This document shows, one piece after another, positions 3,712 through 63,243 of a DNA stretch of 64,000 bases. Where the stretch lies: contig UQQD01000001.1 in assembly GCA_900543095.1 (NCBI GenBank), positions 41,836-105,835 of the forward strand. The letters are read 5' to 3'. Position 1 is the first letter of the stretch, and every line of letters starts with the position of its first letter. This DNA is from an uncultured Ruminococcus sp. (lineage in GTDB: Bacteria > Bacillota > Clostridia > Oscillospirales > Acutalibacteraceae). Below the pieces are notes generated by a model. That model ran no database searches and was not told the origin of the DNA. It was given only the letters and a program-made list of their open reading frames with translations. The position numbers and the translations under genes are program-made.

Positions 3712-4305
3712 TTGATAAAGATAAAGGAAGCCGTTATTGTTGAGGGCAGATATGACAAGATAAAGCTTTCGTCTGTTATTGACGCCCCGATAATCGAAAC
3801 CAACGGATTCAGGGTGTTCAATGACAAGGAAAAGCAAAACCTAATCCGCCAAATTGCCGAAGCGAGAGGAATACTCGTGCTCACCGACAGCGACGGCGCA
3901 GGCTTTGTTATACGCAACTTTCTTAACGGTGTAGTTGACAAAAGCCGTATAAAGCACTGCTACATTCCTCAGATTGAGGGCAAGGAAAAGCGCAAGCCGC
4001 AAAAAAGCAAAGAGGGCTTTTTGGGTGTTGAGGGCGTTGACGACGATGTTATAATTGAGGCTGTACGCAAAAGCGGAGCAACCGTAATCGGTGAAAGTCA
4101 TAGTCAGGAACGGCAGATAACAAAGTCCGATCTTTTTTGTCTTGGACTTACAGGTTCGGAAAACGCCGCAAAAAACAGAGAAAAACTGTTGAAGCATCTC
4201 AATTTGCCTTGCTATCTTTCGACAAACGCCGTTCTTACCGCACTTAACTGCTTATATTCACCGGAAGAATTAAAATTGATTTTAATTGAATTGGAAATAA
4301 AATAA
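3712..4305 (+). CDS. rnmV: Ribonuclease M5-like Toprim domain protein
   Basis: VIVEGRYDKIKL...ETNGF...LVLTDSDGAG matches the RnmV Toprim core. Confidence 0.65.
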   Translation: MIKIKEAVIVEGRYDKIKLSSVIDAPIIETNGFRVFNDKEKQNLIRQIAEARGILVLTDSDGAGFVIRNFLNGVVDKSRIKHCYIPQIEGKEKRKPQKSKEGFLGVEGVDDDVIIEAVRKSGATVIGESHSQERQITKSDLFCLGLTGSENAAKNREKLLKHLNLPCYLSTNAVLTALNCLYSPEELKLILIELEIK

Positions 4306-6184: not shown

Positions 6185-6290
6185 TGTTATAATCTAAGTA
6201 CAGTTGACGCTCTTTTGCAACGGTTGCAATTTGTCGCAAGCTTCAACCATGCAAGAAAACCGTAGCATTGCTCAGATTTGAATAATTTAA
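6185..6290 (+). repeat. Family-1 modular intergenic element, copy A (extended -10 + CTAAGTACAG ... TTGCAATTTGTCGCAAGC ... TTGCTCAGATTTGAAT)
   Basis: Contains the conserved 5' box TGTTATAATCTAAGTACAG, the core palindrome and the 3' box. Lies upstream of the ClpP-like gene. Confidence 0.7.
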
Positions 6291-26892: not shown

Positions 26893-26930
26893 AATCCGGA
26901 CGAACAGTTTAGCTTGCTCGTCCGGATTTT
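26893..26930 (+). terminator. Rho-independent terminator
   Basis: ATCCGGACGA...TCGTCCGGAT followed by TTTT. Confidence 0.65.
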
Positions 26931-26987
26931 ATCAATTTGTTCTGTAATATAATTGTAATTATTCTTTTGTTGAATTTTAGCTTGAAT

Positions 26988-27168
26988 GTGTTATAATCTA
27001 AGTGCAGATGTCACCCGTCTTTTAGGCGGGTGACATCTCAGGATTTCAGTGGGAGTTATAATCTCCCACTAAAATCCTGAGGAGCTAAAGCTCCTTTGCA
27101 CTGCTTGCAATCTGTCGCAGGCTTTGCTCCTTGCAAGCAAAGCAAAGCCTTGCTCCGATTTAAATTAT
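26988..27168 (+). repeat. Family-1 modular element, copy B (full-length, 4 hairpins), acting as the nrdR leader
   Basis: TGTGTTATAATCTAAGTGCAG, then P1, P2, GGAGCTAAAGCTCC and GCTTGCAATCTGTCGCAGGC, ending in TTGCTCCGATTTAAAT 26 nt before nrdR. Confidence 0.75.
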
Positions 27169-27195
27169 TTTATAAAAAATACAGAGGTGATCCGT

Positions 27196-27654
27196 ATGAA
27201 ATGTCCATACTGCGGCTATGAAGAAAGCAAAGTAATCGACTCAAGGTCGGCTGACGACGGAGAACGCATACGCAGAAGACGTGAATGTCTTAAATGCGGT
27301 AAGCGCTTTACTACTCACGAAGTAATTGAAACAGTGCCGATAATCGTAGTTAAGCGTGACAAGTCAAGAGAGGTTTTTGACCGCAATAAGCTCACAGCGG
27401 GAATATTGCGTGCCTGCGAAAAACGCCCTGTATCAATTCAGCAGATAGAGTCAATGGTTGATGAAATTGAGGCAAAGATACAAAGCAGTCTTGACCGTGA
27501 GGTCACAACAATGCAAATCGGTGAGCTTGCAATGGAACAGCTTAAGAATGTTGATGAGGTTTCATATGTTCGCTTTGCGTCTGTTTATCGCCAGTTTAAG
27601 GATATAAACACCTTTATGGATGAGCTTAACAAACTGCTCACCGAAAAGAAATAA
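27196..27654 (+). CDS. nrdR: Transcriptional repressor NrdR
   Basis: MKCPYCG zinc ribbon followed by an ATP-cone domain. Confidence 0.9.
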
Positions 27655-27800
27655 TCTAAGTGCAGATGGTCCTCGACTCTTAGGAGTCGAGGATCAATTC
27701 AAGGTGTCAGAGGGAGTTATATCTACCTCTGACACCTTGAGGAGCTGACGCTCCTTTGCACTGTTTGCAATCTGTCGCAAGCTTTGCTCCGACTTAAATG
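27649..27800 (+). repeat. Family-1 modular element, copy C (begins at the nrdR stop codon)
   Basis: AAATAATCTAAGTGCAG, P1 and P2 with altered but complementary stems, then GGAGCTGACGCTCC, TTGCAATCTGTCGCAAGC and TTGCTCCGACTTAAAT. Confidence 0.75.
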
Positions 27801-27923
27801 TTTCGCACTTTCATTTAATGTATATTATACTTATGTAAAGTATGCGGGCGATGTTTTTTCGCTCTTAGGTTATATATTCTTTAATAATAGTCAGCAAATA
27901 AGTATAAAAAAACAAATCCTATG

Positions 27924-27987
27924 GATAATATCTAAGTGCAGGCTCTGCTTCCTGTAAGCAAAGCAGAGCGTTGCCCCGATTTAAATT
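27924..27987 (+). repeat. Family-1 element, copy D (minimal: 5' box + terminal hairpin + 3' box)
   Basis: GATAATATCTAAGTGCAG, then GGCTCTGCTT...AAGCAGAGC and TTGCCCCGATTTAAAT, 26 nt before the 74-aa ORF. Confidence 0.7.
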
Positions 27988-28012
27988 ATAATCAGAATGA
28001 AAGGGCTATCTA

Positions 28013-28237
28013 ATGAAAATATATTCAATCACATATGACAAGGTTTTAAATCTGAAACGAGCCGCCGCAGAAAAATTCACTGACAAAATTCATTTTCACG
28101 ATGCCTGCGGAGGTCAGTATTTTAACCTTGAAACGCCGAACGAGGAGCTTCAAAAGTTCATAGTGGATTATTTTGAAGGACAGGGAATAGCGGCTGTATT
28201 TTCTGAGGATAATATGAATTTTCATCTTGCTAAATAA
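28013..28237 (+). CDS. Hypothetical 74-aa protein
   Basis: ORF with an RBS-like AAAGGG, flanked by element copies D and E. No family was recognised. Confidence 0.4.
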   Translation: MKIYSITYDKVLNLKRAAAEKFTDKIHFHDACGGQYFNLETPNEELQKFIVDYFEGQGIAAVFSEDNMNFHLAK

Positions 28238-28326
28238 TAATCTATGGAGCTAAAGCTCCTTTGCACCGCTTGCAATCTGTCGCAAGCGGTGCTTTTTGCA
28301 GGCAAAACATTGCTCCGATTTAAATG
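28236..28326 (+). repeat. Family-1 element, copy E (5'-truncated: starts at the GGAGCTAAAGCTCC module)
   Basis: ATAATCTATGGAGCTAAAGCTCCTTTGCACCGCTTGCAATCTGTCGCAAGCGGTGC...TTGCTCCGATTTAAAT. Confidence 0.7.
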
Positions 28327-28426
28327 ATATATTTGATAAAGCACTTTAATAAATCCGATTATTGTGGTATAATGATTATGCAGGAATGACGTGAAAGTAT
28401 AAATATATAACAAACGGAGGTAAAAT

Positions 28427-31084
28427 GTGAAAAAAATTAAAAAAATATTTGCTGTATTTTCAGTAATTGCAGTCATAGGGTGCACTTCTGTTTTTAATGT
28501 CGGAGCGGCATCCGTTTCCGATGGAATAAAGGGTGACATTCAGGCAGTAGAAACAAATGATACCGAAGCAGAAGTAACAGCAGAAATTAAAAATTCAAAT
28601 TATTATGCTATCGATGACATTAACTACAAACTTACTGTTTCTGATAATGCAGAAATAGTCGGTGAAAGTCAAAAGAACGGTATTACTCTTTCGGAAAACG
28701 AAAGCGATTCAATGAATACAAAAGTTGCCCTCAAATCAAAGGCAGATCAAAAAGCTTCGGAAACTGTCCCCACAGAAAATCAGGGTATAACATCTGCCAC
28801 ATCTGCAACCGAAAAAGCCGTAACGGTTAAACAGCCGCAGAGCACAGACAACGGAACTGTTAAAACAGGAAATGCTTCTTCTTTCACAATCACTTTGTCT
28901 GTAGTTATTCTCTTTGTCGCACTCTTAATAATTATCTTGAAAATGCGTGGCAAAAAGGCTTTGATGTCGTTAGTTCTTACAGCAACTCTTACCGTATCCT
29001 GCACGGCTGTCGGTATCAGCACAATTTCAGCAAATGCGGCTGAGGAGTATTCCTGTTTTACGGATGTTTCAGAAATAAAAATCGGAAACGAAAGCGTTAC
29101 GATAACGCTCACAGTCGAATATCCGAAGCAGGCAGAAATTCACGATAACACTCTTGCCGACATTCAGAAACTTAACAATAATCAAGCCGAGGTTATTATT
29201 AATGAAGACGGTGAGATTACTTTTATAAGCGGTAAATTCACGGATTACAAGGTTACAAATGTCGATACTGCTTTTTCCTCACTTCAGGCGGTTGAAACCT
29301 TGTTGGGAGCGGATACATACGACTTTACTCTGCTTCCCGTAAAAACAAATGTAGATACAATCACAGGCGATACATATTATAACTTTGAACAATTTTACAA
29401 CAACTATGCAATAAGTTCTTCGTATGTTGTCGTCGGTGCAGATAAAGACGGCAATACAATTTCTGTTGCAAGCTCACTTGAAAAAAATCTTTCAGATGAA
29501 TTGATCGGAGTTGACACATCAAAGCTTATTTCTTCGGATGATGCAATAAACACGGCTTTAAAGGCTTTGCCTAATCTGGAACTTTCCGAAGTAAGAAATC
29601 CTGAACTTGTGATTGATTCGGATTTCAAAAGATACTGTTGGTATGTATATGTCAACAACCATGGATTGGAGGGCAGTGCTACCGAAAGCTTCAGTTACCT
29701 CAAAATTACCGTTGACGCAGTAAATGGTGAATTTTTATCATACGCCCCATTGTCCTCGATTGAAAGTGATAATACCGAAAGCTATGATGCAGACCTGTAT
29801 TTTAAGAATATAAAAACCGAAATGATGGACTATACTGCGGCAGACGGTTCAACAGTTCAACTCCCAACAACTAAAAAGGCAAACGGAAAATATCAGATTA
29901 TTGATACGGAACGAAAAATATATACAGCTGAGCCTCTTGATACGGAGATGAGCAATCTTCTTACCGCAGGAGCATACACTTTTGACAGCCCGGAAGATGT
30001 CCCCGAAAATGTTGTTTCGTTTGTTGACAACATTATTAAAACATATGATTATTTCAAATCAAAGGGCATAACTTCAACCGACGGAAACGGTGTTCCGATA
30101 AAAATATATATGGGATACTACAAAGCATCAGACGGTCAGGAAGTGGCAAATGCCGTAGCCATAGGCAATGCATTCGGCTTCAGCTCATTTATATGCAGCA
30201 ACACTCCTGTTTCAAGATCGCTTGATGTTGCGGCACACGAATACACACATTCATTCAGAGTTGCGGCAATAGGCTCAATGACTTATAGTAATATAACAGG
30301 AGCCTTAGAAGAATCTTATGCCGACATAATGGGTAATCTAACGGAGATGTCAATCAACCCCGAGGGCTGCGATACCGAAAACTGGCTTGTCGGTGAAAGC
30401 AGATTAGGCACAGCAATCAGATCAATGTCAAATCCGGAAGCTTACTGTCAGCCGTCATCGGTCGGCGGTCCGTACTTCTATTATTCGGGGGATGTACTGT
30501 CACAAAGCCTTGATAACGGAGGAGTACACATCAACAGCGGTGTCCTGAATAACATAGCTTTCAACACTTACCAAAAATCTGACTATTCATATGACGAATG
30601 GTTCGACATTTGGCTTAATTCATGCTATGCGGGAGTTGCAGATTTCAATCTGAATGATGTAAGAGGATATGTAAGGCACATTGCAAAGCGACACGCTCTT
30701 AATGAACTTTACGATTTATTTGAGCAAGAATTCATAAACGCAAATGCAGTAAACACAGATACTTTAAAATGGAACGGCTTCCAAAACTTTGAGGGTTACA
30801 AGAAAGCCCAAATAACAGTCAATAATTTACCCTCAGACTGTGATATTTACGGAGTTATAGCTGTGAATCTTGAAAAATCAGACAACACAGTTAAGCTTCT
30901 GCTGCAAAACAGCGGTAAGAATATGTTGTGCAAGGAATACGATATTGTCGGTCAATCAACGCTTACAATTGTTTGTCAGAGAACGGTTGACAATAAAACA
31001 GAGTTATCGTATTTCCGCAAAACCTTTGAGAAAAACGAAGATTTGTCAAATATAACCGTAGATTACAGCGAATTTATAAGCTAA
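28427..31084 (+). CDS. M4 (thermolysin-like) zinc metallopeptidase. It has an N-terminal surface module, an internal sorting-signal-like TM, and a second signal-peptide-like segment
   Basis: GTG start with GGAGG RBS. HEYTH zinc motif plus ExxxD (EESYADIMG). An internal VKTGN + TM + KMRGKK, followed by a signal-peptide-like segment ending in ANA, at aa 150-205. Confidence 0.7.
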   Translation: MKKIKKIFAVFSVIAVIGCTSVFNVGAASVSDGIKGDIQAVETNDTEAEVTAEIKNSNYYAIDDINYKLTVSDNAEIVGESQKNGITLSENESDSMNTKVALKSKADQKASETVPTENQGITSATSATEKAVTVKQPQSTDNGTVKTGNASSFTITLSVVILFVALLIIILKMRGKKALMSLVLTATLTVSCTAVGISTISANAAEEYSCFTDVSEIKIGNESVTITLTVEYPKQAEIHDNTLADIQKLNNNQAEVIINEDGEITFISGKFTDYKVTNVDTAFSSLQAVETLLGADTYDFTLLPVKTNVDTITGDTYYNFEQFYNNYAISSSYVVVGADKDGNTISVASSLEKNLSDELIGVDTSKLISSDDAINTALKALPNLELSEVRNPELVIDSDFKRYCWYVYVNNHGLEGSATESFSYLKITVDAVNGEFLSYAPLSSIESDNTESYDADLYFKNIKTEMMDYTAADGSTVQLPTTKKANGKYQIIDTERKIYTAEPLDTEMSNLLTAGAYTFDSPEDVPENVVSFVDNIIKTYDYFKSKGITSTDGNGVPIKIYMGYYKASDGQEVANAVAIGNAFGFSSFICSNTPVSRSLDVAAHEYTHSFRVAAIGSMTYSNITGALEESYADIMGNLTEMSINPEGCDTENWLVGESRLGTAIRSMSNPEAYCQPSSVGGPYFYYSGDVLSQSLDNGGVHINSGVLNNIAFNTYQKSDYSYDEWFDIWLNSCYAGVADFNLNDVRGYVRHIAKRHALNELYDLFEQEFINANAVNTDTLKWNGFQNFEGYKKAQITVNNLPSDCDIYGVIAVNLEKSDNTVKLLLQNSGKNMLCKEYDIVGQSTLTIVCQRTVDNKTELSYFRKTFEKNEDLSNITVDYSEFIS

Positions 31085-31087
31085 TAA

Positions 31088-31172
31088 AAAGCCGCACAGC
31101 AATCCACCCAAAACAGTTAGCATTTAGCTTAACTTTTGCGGAGTAGGTAACGCTGTGCGGTTTTTATTTTAT
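31088..31172 (+). terminator. Terminator (long hairpin + T-run)
   Basis: GCCGCACAGC...GCTGTGCGG followed by TTTTTATTTT. Confidence 0.5.
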
Positions 31173-31298
31173 CTTGCGACTTAACAATATAGGCGCATTG
31201 ACCGTTTGTTAGGCAAATCAAATCCTCGGGGTAGGTTTCGACCTGACAGCAGATTTTTACCGCACCTACAATAATTTTAGGAATTGATTTTTCAGTAT

Positions 31299-31341: not shown

Positions 31342-31944
31342 TTATTCAGGATTATTTTCCGTTGCAGTCGGCTCATTGGACTGAGCAGGTTGTTGTACCG
31401 ATGGTTGTTCAACAGTTTGTTGAGTCGGTTGCTGAACAGGCTGCTGGATTGGTTGCTGTGCAGGCTGTTGTATAGGCTGCTGAACAGGTTGCTGGATTGG
31501 TTGCTGTGCAGGCTGTTGTATAGGTTGCTGAACAGGCTGTTGTATAGGCTGTTGCATCGGTTGCTGCATAGGCTGCTGAACAGCATTTTGCGGAATTTCG
31601 CCGACTCTGTATTCAAGACGGTGCCTTAAAGGCTTGTGGCACTTCGGACAATAAACAAAGCCGTGCGGATACCATGCGCGATAACCGAGATCTTTAGTTC
31701 TGTACTCAAAGGTGCAAAGACAATATTCGCACTGAACCCTAAAAACGGGATCGGGGGTGTTAATTACGTTTACTCCGCCCTGAGTATATGTGACCTGAGG
31801 CGTACCGTTCTGAGGATACGGTGCTGCTTGAGGTGCAGGATTTTGTTGTGTGTTTGGTGCAGCCTGAAAAACAGGGGTGCCGCACTTGCTGCAAAATCTG
31901 TCTTGCGGATCAATCTGATTGCCGCATTTTGTGCAAAAACTCAT
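31342..31944 (-). CDS. Zinc-ribbon protein with QQP(I/V/A/M) tandem repeats and a second Cys-rich ribbon
   Basis: N-terminal CxxC...CxxC, a 12-fold QQPxQQPx repeat, and C-terminal CEYCLC...CPKC. Confidence 0.5.
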   Translation of the reverse strand: MSFCTKCGNQIDPQDRFCSKCGTPVFQAAPNTQQNPAPQAAPYPQNGTPQVTYTQGGVNVINTPDPVFRVQCEYCLCTFEYRTKDLGYRAWYPHGFVYCPKCHKPLRHRLEYRVGEIPQNAVQQPMQQPMQQPIQQPVQQPIQQPAQQPIQQPVQQPIQQPAQQPIQQPVQQPTQQTVEQPSVQQPAQSNEPTATENNPE

Positions 31945-32130: not shown

Positions 32131-32290
32131 ATGATTTTAACCGGAGCAACTTTCTTATTTGTTTGCAGGTCAGAGCCTGCGACAGACTGCAAACAGTGCA
32201 GGTAGCATTATTCTCTCAGGTTTTCAGAGGAAGGTATCTGTATTTAGGCCATTATCGCCACTGATATATGCTCTTAGGTTATATTTATGC
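32131..32290 (-). repeat. Family-1 modular element, copy J (minus strand, upstream of the 31944 zinc-ribbon gene, antisense to the plus-strand leader)
   Basis: Reverse complement reads AAATATAACCTAAGAGCAT ... TGCACTGTTTGCAGTCTGTCGCAGGCTC ... TTGCTCCGGTTAAAATCAT. Confidence 0.6.
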
Positions 32291-35300: not shown

Positions 35301-35926
35301 CTGCATCGGTAGTATCAAACAAAAACACAAATATGCTGGGATGTATCGCAACGGGCAATTACAGTACATATGACCTTGAGGGTAAAATAAATGTATATGG
35401 AAGTTTTATCGGAAAAACAGATAAATATGTAACTGCCGTAAATTGTGAAACAGGCGGTATAGATGATATTTTTGTTACTCAAAACGATGAGGTGGAATAT
35501 GGACTGATTTATAACGGCATTGAGTGCGGACTCCTATTTTACAGACCGTATATTCATGATAAAAAGGGTATAAGCGTAAGCGTTAAAAACGAAATACTCG
35601 AATATTCGGACGGCGTTCAAACATTCAGTACAAATATTCCTGCCGCATTTGACGCTGAGGATTATCAGCTTGATTCAATAGGCGATCAAAGAGGATGTGT
35701 TTACGGCAGTTTTTCATATGTGCCTTATAGGTCCGAATTCATCGGAGATGCCAATATGGACGGAAAGGTTAATATTAATGATGTAACGTGTATTCAAAAG
35801 TACCTGTCGGAATATATCACTCGTGATAAAATAGACTTAAATGCTGCAGATGTAGATATGAACGGCGTTGTCACTATAAAAGATGCAACGTGTCTGCAAA
35901 AAAGACTTACGGCGATGACGGTATGA
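32306..35926 (+). CDS. Secreted multidomain protein: putative papain-like Cys peptidase domain, right-handed beta-helix repeats, C-terminal type-I dockerin
   Basis: Signal peptide MKKSLKK... A CWAG Cys motif and GAHVISCWGY His region. NxxGGAxxxSxG beta-helix repeats. The dockerin is DANMDGKVNINDVTCIQKYL...DVDMNGVVTIKDATCLQKRL. Confidence 0.6.
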   Translation: MKKSLKKSVSVFLSLIMVLSVCSAGFCVSNAAVAEEEPLGVPVIDAEETKTVISFDNGSTAKINNAPDVSKLENRQIVENIAGYEVFYDGNSIMDVTLNDVVSSKTATETKAPNGYYSVRFDMPDTNKEVFLTGLTPDNMELIQEKLIDSYTSDKDFTLESFDFIDTEKTTASNDDDNLCWAGVASNLLHYTGWGAKAGYKTEDDLFDLFVDSFNDGPYFISNGLSWFFNGYENIISSFDPNDATVKKPNSGAFLPDYAYDKVGSANFFNDDYSNSIKLIKQAQKDLKDGSGVGIGVGWLNGDSFNGAHVISCWGYVNNNDYSEDVKEHYEAFIISDSDSDERADSNRRTAPNKINIIHSSPYSAAGFNTWLFKGYGSGLLYSVDSIKPYSDDLEKETSPRATKNKNSTVDFLADGINVSSADGTSSDSQKTLFSDDEIYLTAVVAKSNIIAFNGECEFSFRILNDLGNEVYTATQRKSLNTNNGVKFYVGLTDKSIRLSPGSYTAELTVNPQEEIEEAYYYNNMCSTEFVVDTDEKPNYELSVSADIADFNDLDQSEAKISYQVFDEILPDISTVELYLSYYQDENWTLWRNEKRGSQGLPLGSAPEAVASPVSSFEEDNAEDSMFIYKCSVSKIGSKVKFLVKVTLTNGKTINVYSPEYELYYSKILYVDDDKNTGTYSNLENGATKLADGEQFCFSIKNASTYDSGVISGYYVLALSNETQTVDITDPQYFSLSYGESINSITIDSWNDGLPLSGKYSVLVNVYTDDGVFNSCNNLGTLCFREQNGIVVDTADDVSDDYDGKTSLREAVEYYIDRNLVDESITVSENLKNGCLNLNSPIKIDAKVKIDGSSNYEQGGKSYISGTYIQSYSGSLFNITDRGELNLNGLTLSGVMADYGGTVNNNGGKAEFSNVRFFNSSAKIAGGAVYSSGGILTFKNCTFKLSSSENGGAVFLTDGAKADMLNCTLFSNMSNNGIITNNSGNLNIVNSTFTENTNSASVVSNKNTNMLGCIATGNYSTYDLEGKINVYGSFIGKTDKYVTAVNCETGGIDDIFVTQNDEVEYGLIYNGIECGLLFYRPYIHDKKGISVSVKNEILEYSDGVQTFSTNIPAAFDAEDYQLDSIGDQRGCVYGSFSYVPYRSEFIGDANMDGKVNINDVTCIQKYLSEYITRDKIDLNAADVDMNGVVTIKDATCLQKRLTAMTV

Positions 35927-35928
35927 CT

Positions 35929-36076
35929 TAAGTGCAAGTGACACCTGCCTCTAATTGCATTGCTGATTGTGGGTAAGTCGGAACATTTCTGCAATTTAAA
36001 AGCAAAGGGACTGTCGCATTTAGTGCAGAGCAAAGAAAACGCTTTCTGCATATAAATGCTACAGCCCCTTTTTGGT
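35929..36076 (+). repeat. Family-2 element, copy H (CTTAAGTGCAAG start, long hairpin GGGACTGTCGCATTTA...TAAATGCTACAGCCCC + T-run)
   Basis: It shares its 5' start with family 1 and ends in a terminator-like hairpin. An inverted homolog lies at 50020-50145. Confidence 0.6.
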
Positions 36077-48608: not shown

Positions 48609-49139
48609 ATGATTTGTCCTAATTGCGGAAATCAAATTGCAGACGGTACAGCTTTCTGCACAAACTGCGGCACACAGCTGAATAATGCTGCTCCCGAACA
48701 GCCTGCTCAGAATTATCAGCAGCCGGTTCAAAATTACCAACAACCGGCTCAGAGCTACCAACAGCCTGCTCAAAACTATCAGCAGCCGGTTCAAAACTAT
48801 CAACAGCCGGTTCAAAACTATCAACAGCCGGTTCAGCCTACGCTTATGAACGCAGAGAACCCTACTGCCGGCAAGGCTCTTGCACTCGGTATTGTTTCAC
48901 TTTGCCTTTGCTGGTTGCCTGTTGCAAGCATTATACTCGGCATATTCGCAATAAAAGCAGGTAATGAAACGCTTGCATATTCCAATCAGGGCTACAACAA
49001 ACGTCCGATGGGAATTATCGCAAAGATATTCGGTATCGTAAGTATAATTGTTTGTTCAATAATGACAATTTATTGGTTAATATTTATTATTGCTATTTGC
49101 GTTGCCGGCTCATACGCCACAACTTACTACTACTATTAA
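48609..49139 (+). CDS. Zinc-ribbon protein with QNYQQP(V/A) repeats and C-terminal DUF4190-like membrane domain
   Basis: CPNCG...CTNCG, a 7-fold repeat, and two TM helices. It is a paralog of the 31342-31944 protein. Confidence 0.55.
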   Translation: MICPNCGNQIADGTAFCTNCGTQLNNAAPEQPAQNYQQPVQNYQQPAQSYQQPAQNYQQPVQNYQQPVQNYQQPVQPTLMNAENPTAGKALALGIVSLCLCWLPVASIILGIFAIKAGNETLAYSNQGYNKRPMGIIAKIFGIVSIIVCSIMTIYWLIFIIAICVAGSYATTYYYY

Positions 49140-52383: not shown

Positions 52384-52503
52384 GTTATATTATAATCTAA
52401 GTACAGATGTCCTTCGCCGATTAGGCAGAGGGTTGTTATATCAGGGCTTGCAATCTGTCGCAAGCCTTGCTTCTTGTGAGTAAAGCGTTGCTCCGATTTA
52501 AAC
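52384..52503 (+). repeat. Family-1 modular element, copy F, acting as leader of the 52544 gene
   Basis: TGTTATATTATAATCTAAGTACAG, a P1-like hairpin, GGCTTGCAATCTGTCGCAAGCC, and TTGCTCCGATTTAAAC. Confidence 0.7.
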
Positions 52504-52543
52504 TACGATGAATTAATATGGAATGATATTGGAGGAAAAGGTA

Positions 52544-63128: not shown

Positions 63129-63134
63129 TGTTTG

Positions 63135-63233
63135 TTTAAATCTGAGCAACGCTTGCGGTACTTGCGCTGTTTGTAATCTGGTCGCAAGCTCTGCACTTTG
63201 CAGGTAAAGCAAAGCCTTGCTCCGATTTAAATT
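63135..63233 (+). repeat. Family-1 element, copy G (diverged 5' box)
   Basis: AATCTGAGCAACG ... TTTGTAATCTGGTCGCAAGC ... AAAGCAAAGCC TTGCTCCGATTTAAAT. Confidence 0.6.
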
Positions 63234-63243
63234 CGATAAAAAA

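Follow-up and report, generated by a model that had tools for sequence, protein, structure and literature searches.

A structured, probably mobile non-coding repeat clustered around nrdR in an uncultured Ruminococcus

The 64-kb stretch of DNA analysed here (the window), from contig UQQD01000001.1 of an uncultured Ruminococcus sp., carries a tight cluster of repeat elements around nrdR and a small open reading frame (ORF) of 74 amino acids (aa). We consider it probable that these elements are copies of one non-coding, interspersed mobile repeat of approximately 170 nucleotides (nt), comparable in kind to BOX, bcr1 and MITEs (miniature inverted-repeat transposable elements), which is mobile now or was at least in the past, and that recombination between its copies, rather than an integron-like system, lies behind the differences between strains at this locus. 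The original prediction, made from the sequence alone, had placed four copies of the element between positions 26988 and 28326. A covariance model recovers all four (190, 137, 63 and 41 bits for B, C, E and D, respectively), and the gene order is as claimed: element B, nrdR, element C, element D, the 74-aa ORF, element E and an M4 protease gene.

The blocks shared by these copies were first detected by direct-repeat and motif searches. They comprise a 5′ block (TAATCTAAGTGCAG), a core block (TTGCAATCTGTCGCA) and a 3′ block (TTGCTCCGATTTAAA), all of which recur elsewhere in the window. The covariance model, built from 35 diverse copies (R1, alignment A2) and run over the whole window with filters off, yields eight to nine copies in total, including the four of the interval, all of which lie on the plus strand. 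Element B (body 26998–27165, model match 26989–27167, E = 2.5e-46) is a full-length copy of 168 nt located in the 5′ leader of nrdR (27196–27654, plus strand, 152 aa with the Pfam domains Zn-ribbon_NrdR and ATP-cone). It is composed of a long-range helix, P1, closing a four-way junction with hairpins 1–3, followed by a core hairpin, hairpin 5 and the tail GCTCCGATTTAAAT. Element C (body 27656–27799, model match 27647–27801, E = 5.6e-33) keeps hairpins 1–3, P1 and the core and lacks the last hairpin, hairpin 5. It had been described as starting on the nrdR stop codon, which is true of its flanking hexamer AATAAT (27650–27655), overlapping the TAA, and not of the body, which begins at 27656. Element D (body 27932–27986, model match 27900–27988, E = 7.4e-09) is an internally deleted copy of 55 nt, flanked by TAATAT, whose 5′ 10 nt, CTAAGTGCAG, run directly into hairpin 5 and the tail; the start of the 74-aa ORF (28013–28237, plus strand) lies 26 nt beyond its end. 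Element E (body 28242–28325, model match 28148–28327, E = 1.9e-14), of 84 nt, consists of CTA, hairpin 3, the core, a degenerate hairpin 5 and the tail. Its flank AATAAT (28236–28241) does overlap the stop of the 74-aa ORF, as had been noticed, and the copy is internally deleted rather than simply truncated at its 5′ end. The M4 protease gene (28427–31084, plus strand) follows.

The consensus extends for approximately 170 nt following the flanking hexamer and folds, as a single strand, into the long-range helix P1 enclosing three hairpins, then the conserved core hairpin, a fifth hairpin and the tail. It starts with CTAAGCGCAG, the 5′ strand of P1, which pairs with CTGCGC as the 3′ strand; hairpin 1 is ATGTCCCCCGCC...GGCGGCGGG, hairpin 2 is TTCAGTGGGAG-TTATAAT-CTCCCACTGAA, hairpin 3 is GGAGC-TAAC-GCTCC and the core hairpin is TTGC-AATCTGTC-GCAA, which precedes hairpin 5 and the tail GTTGCTCCGATTTAAA(T). 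Covariation was tested on a hand-drawn structure of 48 pairs over the 35 copies of alignment A2, with 500 shuffles and slid structures as controls. The drawn pairs are 91% paired, and double-sided changes occur in 28 of them compared with 11.8 expected, a number reached in none of the 500 shuffles and well above the slid controls (13 pairs at most). All six pairs of P1 covary, with strands approximately 100 nt apart, and both conservation and covariation run through the entire 170 nt including P1. The way in which the copies were ascertained, an exact-pattern search, is in part responsible for the invariance of core and tail in A2. As RNA, B and C are predicted to fold at −85.5 kcal/mol (z = −10.4) and −76.5 kcal/mol (z = −11.7), respectively; their hairpin sequences are very unlike, with many compensatory changes, and their architecture is alike. 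The repeat is also modular, as hairpins 1–3 may be absent singly or jointly and internally deleted derivatives are frequent. A long-range pairing between AAUC of the core loop and GAUU of the tail, predicted by RNAalifold, is less favoured, one divergent copy (L094:6478) supporting the local hairpin instead.

The insertion of B can be traced through an empty site in the cultured relative Ruminococcus sp. YE282 (L055), which has the same nrdR promoter and an nrdR that is 98.7% identical to that of the window in protein and 84% in DNA. In YE282, TGTTATAAT runs straight into TATTTAAGAGAATAATACAGGGG...ATG, forming a short nrdR leader, and the window contains 168 extra bases, namely copy B, precisely between the TATAAT of TGTTATAAT and TATTTTAT. 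The flanks of this insertion are 89% and 83% identical between the two, leaving only a 3-nt ambiguity, AAT. The same empty site is found in two further element-free relatives (L145 and L151), which have ordinary terminators after nrdR, and TGTTATAAT together with its −35 box is conserved in all three. The promoter upstream of B (26970–26997, plus strand; −35 TTGAAT at 26970–26975, a 16-nt spacer and a TG-extended −10 TATAAT at 26992–26997, located by a promoter scan) is therefore native to nrdR and not borne by the element. This contradicts the earlier idea of repeated promoter insertion, as the element landed inside a promoter, and it answers the comparison of nrdR synteny in relatives proposed with it: the promoter is kept and the element is missing. 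The order RecG–PBP–nrdR is preserved in two of the three element-free relatives. A scan of metagenome contigs for relatives of NrdR gave 80 loci at 66–93% identity, most of those at 90–93% retaining RecG–PBP–NrdR synteny, and none of the 80 has an element within 2.5 kb of nrdR, which bears out the suspicion that nrdR in a repeat cluster is unusual.

Comparison of L055:4545–5120 with window positions 26925–27660 shows that YE282 and the window species share only the promoter and gene of nrdR. In YE282 a membrane protein is encoded upstream, and NifU-like and cysteine desulfurase genes lie downstream, so that the genes differ on both sides; the neighbourhood of nrdR has been rearranged. YE282 has element copies of its own approximately 950 nt upstream and approximately 150 nt downstream (minus strand) of nrdR.

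The target was analysed on 108 copies with an intact 5′ end. TATAAY or AATAAY flanks 105 of them at the 5′ side (TATAAC in 74, TATAAT in 15, AATAAC in 13 and AATAAT in 3), and beyond this hexamer the upstream sequences are non-homologous between copies. A −35 box at a distance of 16–18 nt accompanies 11 of the 15 TATAAT-flanked copies versus none of the 74 flanked by TATAAC. In many cases the copy touches or overlaps the upstream ORF's stop codon, in keeping with the positions of C and E. No direct repeat indicative of target duplication was found in the flanks of 89 copies, nor at the empty site of B beyond the 3-nt ambiguity, and by manual count the TATAAC-flanked copies show no correspondence between the base that follows TTTAAA and the final base of their 5′ hexamer. 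Convincing terminal inverted repeats are likewise missing in our reading of A2, in which (TATAAC)CTAAGCGCAG and the reverse complement of GCTCCGATTTAAA match at approximately 8 of 13 positions; a fortuitous inverted repeat of 11 out of 12 positions occurs in copy G only. At tandem junctions, GATTTAAAT is followed directly by CTAAG, showing that the element's own 3′ end resembles its target. Taken as insertion events, these features make it probable that the repeat enters in one orientation directly 3′ of a TATAA(T/C)-like hexamer, without target duplication or terminal inverted repeats. B landed after the −10 box of nrdR, whereas C would have landed after AATAAT at the nrdR stop, D after TAATAT and E after the AATAAT that overlaps the 74-aa ORF stop. 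Head-to-tail arrays may then arise through the 3′ end, TTTAAAT, which mimics the target. If confirmed, a preference for TATAA(Y), with real promoters around none but the TATAAT-flanked copies, would be out of the ordinary.

The direct repeats serve as substrates for homologous recombination, as is seen among strains. Contigs encoding an identical NrdR or an identical 74-aa protein display four arrangements downstream of nrdR: nrdR–M4, the commonest; nrdR–74-aa–M4, as in the window; nrdR–74-aa without M4; and nrdR with neither. In strains without the 74-aa ORF, nrdR is followed by a single hybrid element that matches C in its 5′ part and E in its 3′ part, with a 42-nt overlap of the blastn segments (L001, L003, L007, L008 and L009). 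The homologous 42-nt stretches, at 27741–27782 in C and 28246–28287 in E (plus strand), span hairpin 3 to the core. Both breakpoints of the 74-aa segment fall within them and point to recombination between direct repeats. The 505 bp deleted run from the 3′ end of C through an A+T-rich spacer (27800–27931, plus strand; absent in strains L001 and L003–L009), D and the 74-aa ORF to the 5′ end of E. C × E recombination accounts for the strains that lack the ORF. Upstream of nrdR, one, two or three head-to-tail copies are present depending on the strain, with a period of 171 nt; the proximal tandem copies differ in the sequence of hairpins 1 and 2 and are identical in the 3′ half, and recombination between tandem copies accounts for this variation in number. 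Downstream of nrdR, a tandem pair was seen in one strain.

The variable M4 segment (approximately 28330–31297, or 2.97 kb, plus strand) contains its own promoter (28346–28373), the protease gene and a terminator, and is absent in some strains. Its left breakpoint lies 4 nt past E and its right breakpoint in ordinary sequence (alignment A1), so that it is a separate kind of indel that merely abuts E. The 74-aa ORF, which the original prediction had proposed to test for presence or absence as a unit with its flanking elements, is gained or lost with both breakpoints in C and E; the M4 gene has an element on one side only. The core hairpin of E, with 11 base pairs followed by TTTTT, forms a terminator-like site at 28263–28292. 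In strains without the 74-aa ORF, this hairpin (window 28263–28300) would be the first terminator-like structure after nrdR.

The other copies in the window are dispersed. Copy A (body 6194–6283, model match 6185–6285, plus strand), which is internally deleted, follows a TTGAAA-17-TGtTATAAT promoter and precedes a ClpP-like gene. Copy F (body 52397–52503, model match 52388–52505, plus strand) retains hairpin 1, the core, hairpin 5 and the tail; it follows a TTGATT-17-TATAAT promoter and precedes a 359-aa ORF. Copy G (body 63142–63232, model match 63133–63234, plus strand), preceded by TTTAAAT, occupies the 3′ untranslated region (UTR) after an OadA-like gene, a locus with the same spacing at the three strain places listed. 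Copy H (32132–32286, minus strand), degenerate and near full length, is found upstream of a Zn-ribbon gene in every strain examined. Copy I (body 35927–36001, model match 35919–36003, plus strand; 16 bits, E = 0.014) is a decayed remnant, CTTAAGTGCAAG...TGCAATTTAAAAG, that abuts the stop of a gene for a 1,255-aa dockerin protein. The dockerin genes, along with the names that identical proteins bear, indicate an uncultured Ruminococcus-like bacterium of the human gut.

Beyond the window, the exact core-plus-tail pattern, searched with one genome per species, matches 112 DNA stretches in approximately 40 genomes of Clostridia/Oscillospirales. Among the carriers are cultured bacteria (Ructibacterium gallinarum, Ruminococcus sp. 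YE282 and Fumia xinanensis) and many metagenome-assembled genomes (MAGs), one of which, RGIG9115, has at least 25 exact matches by manual count. With the covariance model, the 112 loci and the window together hold 143 copies. Copies from the same genome carry genome-specific signatures, fitting a family that has been amplified within genomes. The pattern has no match in viral contigs, and thus no link to phages. A search of Rfam 15 with the window (gathering and E-value thresholds) and with four loci holding canonical copies gave no match, the best hits being chance-level microRNA and snoRNA models, and no description of the repeat was found in the searchable literature by sequence string or keywords. 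The family is hence widespread in Oscillospirales of gut and rumen, with no earlier description in either source.

Several side observations concern the makeup of the family. A second repeat subfamily, also flanked by TATAAC, has near-identical hairpins 1 and 2, a different 5′ strand (TAAAAGCAAG) and a shorter, quite different 3′ part without core or tail (L077:6156–6283; L066:6908–7078; L112:2220–2359 and 4114–4279; L047:4544–4683; L020:6864–6994; and the 3′ end of L101). The common 5′ half and distinct 3′ half indicate two families that share a 5′ module. A full-length element of 158 bits is found on contig CAVDQG010000003.1 (L118), labelled as a Bacteroides uniformis isolate ('cleanbin'); probably this is a Clostridia contig placed in the wrong bin, and not a case of the element in Bacteroides. 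Nine loci from MAG assemblies contain copies cut by contig ends (L029, L040, L062, L071, L072, L084, L102, L109 and L121), which suggests that the repeat breaks short-read assemblies.

How the repeat would move is suggested by analogy. A specific 5′ target in combination with neither inverted repeats nor target duplication points to single-strand mobilization of the IS200/IS605 or RAYT type, and the element may be moved as a single strand by such an enzyme encoded elsewhere in the genome. Copies that are transcribed would serve as leader or trailer structures, B making up most of the nrdR 5′ UTR and E supplying a terminator-like hairpin. The cassette-like pattern would be a by-product of the pile-up of repeats and of recombination between them, with no dedicated cassette system.

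Several observations weigh against this interpretation. Pfam scans of 49 ORFs in the window, which returned only housekeeping functions, revealed no integrase, transposase or recombinase, nor did tblastn queries with one tyrosine and one serine recombinase, both taken from other loci, match anything there. Within the 112 loci, no protein family recurs beside the elements, the neighbouring proteins being common paralogues and a few unrelated integrases, and no split element carrying cargo was seen; the element-associated integrase or recombinase that the original prediction had proposed to look for was thus not found in the window or these loci. A tblastn search with an approximate IS200 TnpA query gave no match in 1.05 Mb of DNA. 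Among strains of the window species no de novo insertion polymorphism was seen, copy G being fixed and all variation found being recombinational. The right breakpoint of the M4 indel lies outside any element, and the interpretation does not account for the place of the 74-aa gene between D and E. The breadth of conservation and covariation, at 170 nt, exceeds what a transposase would be likely to need and hints at a role at the RNA level. Finally, elements between co-directional genes are in sense orientation in 47 cases versus 12 in antisense (80% sense), with another 22 copies between convergent and 19 between divergent genes, and the source of this bias could be transcription instead of the way the element moves. 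Only eight cases are informative on replication- versus transcription-linked orientation, six following the neighbouring genes and two the majority of the locus.

An alternative view is that the element is a functional RNA, such as a cis-regulatory leader, a riboswitch-like sensor or a small-RNA family, with the cluster reflecting common regulation of nrdR, the 74-aa gene and the protease. The strong covariation over the full structure, loops and a core conserved in approximately 40 species, the 80% sense orientation near co-directional genes and the position of A, B and F between a good promoter and a gene start all speak for it. Yet copies also occur in 3′ UTRs and, in 22 of 143 cases, between convergent genes, and 12 are antisense to both neighbours; the genes alongside have unrelated functions; copies are often internally deleted, arranged in tandem or decayed; close species have no element at nrdR; and no Rfam family matches. 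Moreover, insertion right after a −10 box would start the transcript approximately 7 nt into the element, at the loss of part of P1. We consequently regard a functional RNA as distinctly unlikely to be the primary explanation. A bolder form of the mobile-repeat interpretation, which we also hold to be unlikely while giving it some room, posits a new class of strand-specific elements that home to TATAA(Y) without target duplication, land between the −10 box and the transcription start to become the host leader, and move as a folded single strand. All 170 nt including P1 would be under structural selection because the RNA or single-stranded DNA is a transposition intermediate or a ribozyme- or guide-like cofactor of some enzyme, and the direct repeats would shuffle small genes between strains.

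The cassette-like appearance could also suggest a site-specific cassette system, integron-like or otherwise, in which the elements serve as recombination sites and bound the 74-aa ORF and the M4 gene as mobile cassettes. All four combinations of presence and absence of these two genes do exist among strains, the elements fold as single strands in the manner of attC sites, and in sister species the 74-aa gene resides at unrelated loci with only the ORF alignable. Thus, the arrangement is cassette-like in its four gene orders and in the 74-aa breakpoints within C and E; an array of the integron type is not supported. Neither a tyrosine nor a serine recombinase was found in the window, the elements are spread across the chromosome beside housekeeping genes, the 74-aa junction can lie anywhere in the 42-nt homologous stretch with no defined crossover, M4 has an element on one side only, the ends CTAAGYGCAG ... 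GATTTAAAT are unlike the attC core sites RYYYAAC and GTTRRRY, and 74-aa homologues in other species are not flanked by elements. Such a system is very improbable here. There is next to no chance that the cluster arose without mobility, through slippage or unequal crossing-over that duplicated one ancestral sequence in place. The 171-nt tandem duplicates upstream of nrdR in some strains, with identical 3′ halves, are what such a process would leave, but copies at no fewer than five other sites in the window and in approximately 40 species, together with precise empty sites in relatives, already contradict it, and B and C are separated by many compensatory changes.

The 74-aa ORF is a real gene for a conserved small protein. 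Homologues form eight clusters of 72–77 aa at 45–99% identity with an invariant motif, IHFHDxCGGQ (alignment A5), and AlphaFold2 confidently predicts a small alpha/beta fold (pLDDT 91.7) for which no significant fold match in the PDB and no sequence match in Pfam or the PDB was found. The statement that the protein has no recognizable family thus stands with respect to Pfam and falls with respect to these eight clusters and to its place beside ThiF in other species. In distant relatives (L132, L136 and L138), the homologue and the start of a ThiF-family gene overlap in every case, in operons of sulfur metabolism with rhodanese, cysteine desulfurase or Cys/Met-metabolism genes and no elements near. 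In two sister species the gene is found by itself, under a promoter of its own, at an unrelated locus, where only the ORF can be aligned to the window, and the copy in the window is also a stand-alone one. The family may be an undescribed small partner of ThiF-like enzymes. The ThiF neighbours brought ThiS/MoaD and TusA into consideration, and both were rejected, as the protein has no C-terminal GG, its predicted fold is not a beta-grasp and neither the PDB nor Pfam gives a match.

Elsewhere in the window, two small zinc-ribbon proteins contain in-frame Q/P-rich tandem repeats with periods of 12 nt and 21 nt, encoded at 31342–31944 (minus strand; repeat 31378–31595) and 48609–49139 (repeat 48697–48843). 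The first varies in length between strains, with 200 aa in the window and 184–192 aa in other contigs.

For the strains that carry them, these repeats are recombination hot spots that alter gene content within one species, the genes affected here being those for a secreted M4 metalloprotease and a small conserved protein. In addition, a copy is lodged within the promoter-leader of nrdR, whose product represses the ribonucleotide reductase genes. The family may be of use in strain typing in the manner of BOX-PCR, and it is probably a cause of contig breaks in metagenome assemblies.

Among known systems, derivatives of IS200/IS605 (PATEs) and the REP/RAYT system have neither terminal inverted repeats nor target duplication and insert 3′ of a short motif that is kept at the left flank. 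They possess subterminal hairpins and a strand-specific orientation, and are moved by single-strand HUH/Y1 transposition. The present element likewise inserts 3′ of a conserved motif without target-site duplication or terminal inverted repeats, judging from 105 of 108 flanks and the empty sites. It also has subterminal hairpins and would share the strand-specific orientation. It differs in that no Y1 transposase or RAYT is linked to it in the loci and window searched, and in size: REPs measure approximately 35 nt, as against 170 nt here, conserved and structured throughout and including a long-range helix. Compared with the classical MITE, it is small, non-coding and multi-copy with filled and empty sites between relatives, and it lacks the terminal inverted repeats and the target-site duplication. 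The internal modules typical of BOX-type repeats are variably present. The adjacent IntI/attI and fixed crossover in core sites of an integron cassette array are missing from the 64-kb window; nor is there the consistent 5′-UTR position at related genes of a riboswitch or cis leader, given the copies in 3′ UTRs, between convergent genes and in antisense.

Correia (NEMIS) elements of Neisseria are also small repeats found at promoters and in 5′ and 3′ UTRs and co-transcribed with their neighbours (PMC3184786, PMC3049150), but they have promoters of their own, 26-bp inverted repeats and TA duplication, in contrast to the landing after the −10 box of a host-gene promoter described here. BOX of Streptococcus pneumoniae, boxA-boxB(n)-boxC, is a modular repeat with a predicted structured RNA that is now slowly mobile (PMC3049150). 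Both BOX and the present family are non-coding, intergenic and multi-copy, with internal modules absent or repeated, predicted to form extensive stem-loops if transcribed, variable in length between strains by recombination or slippage, and marked by rare new insertions today and an uncertain mobilizing enzyme (PMC3049150). Compared by eye only, the two sequences show no similarity, and the present family has the 5′ flank motif TATAAY and spans many genera versus one species group. The bcr1 repeat of the Bacillus cereus group, approximately 155 nt long with compensatory changes (PMC3184786), is similar in size (approximately 155–170 nt), in belonging to Firmicutes, in being non-autonomous and patchy between related strains and species, and in a multi-hairpin structure preserved by compensatory base changes (PMC3184786). 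It has another fold, no sequence relationship and 5-bp direct repeats, where here nothing exceeds the 3-nt ambiguity. By this comparison, the repeat is best understood as a new family within a known kind of bacterial structured interspersed repeat, with BOX and bcr1 as its closest functional analogues; it differs from both in having a specific 5′ target and in lacking inverted repeats and target duplication.

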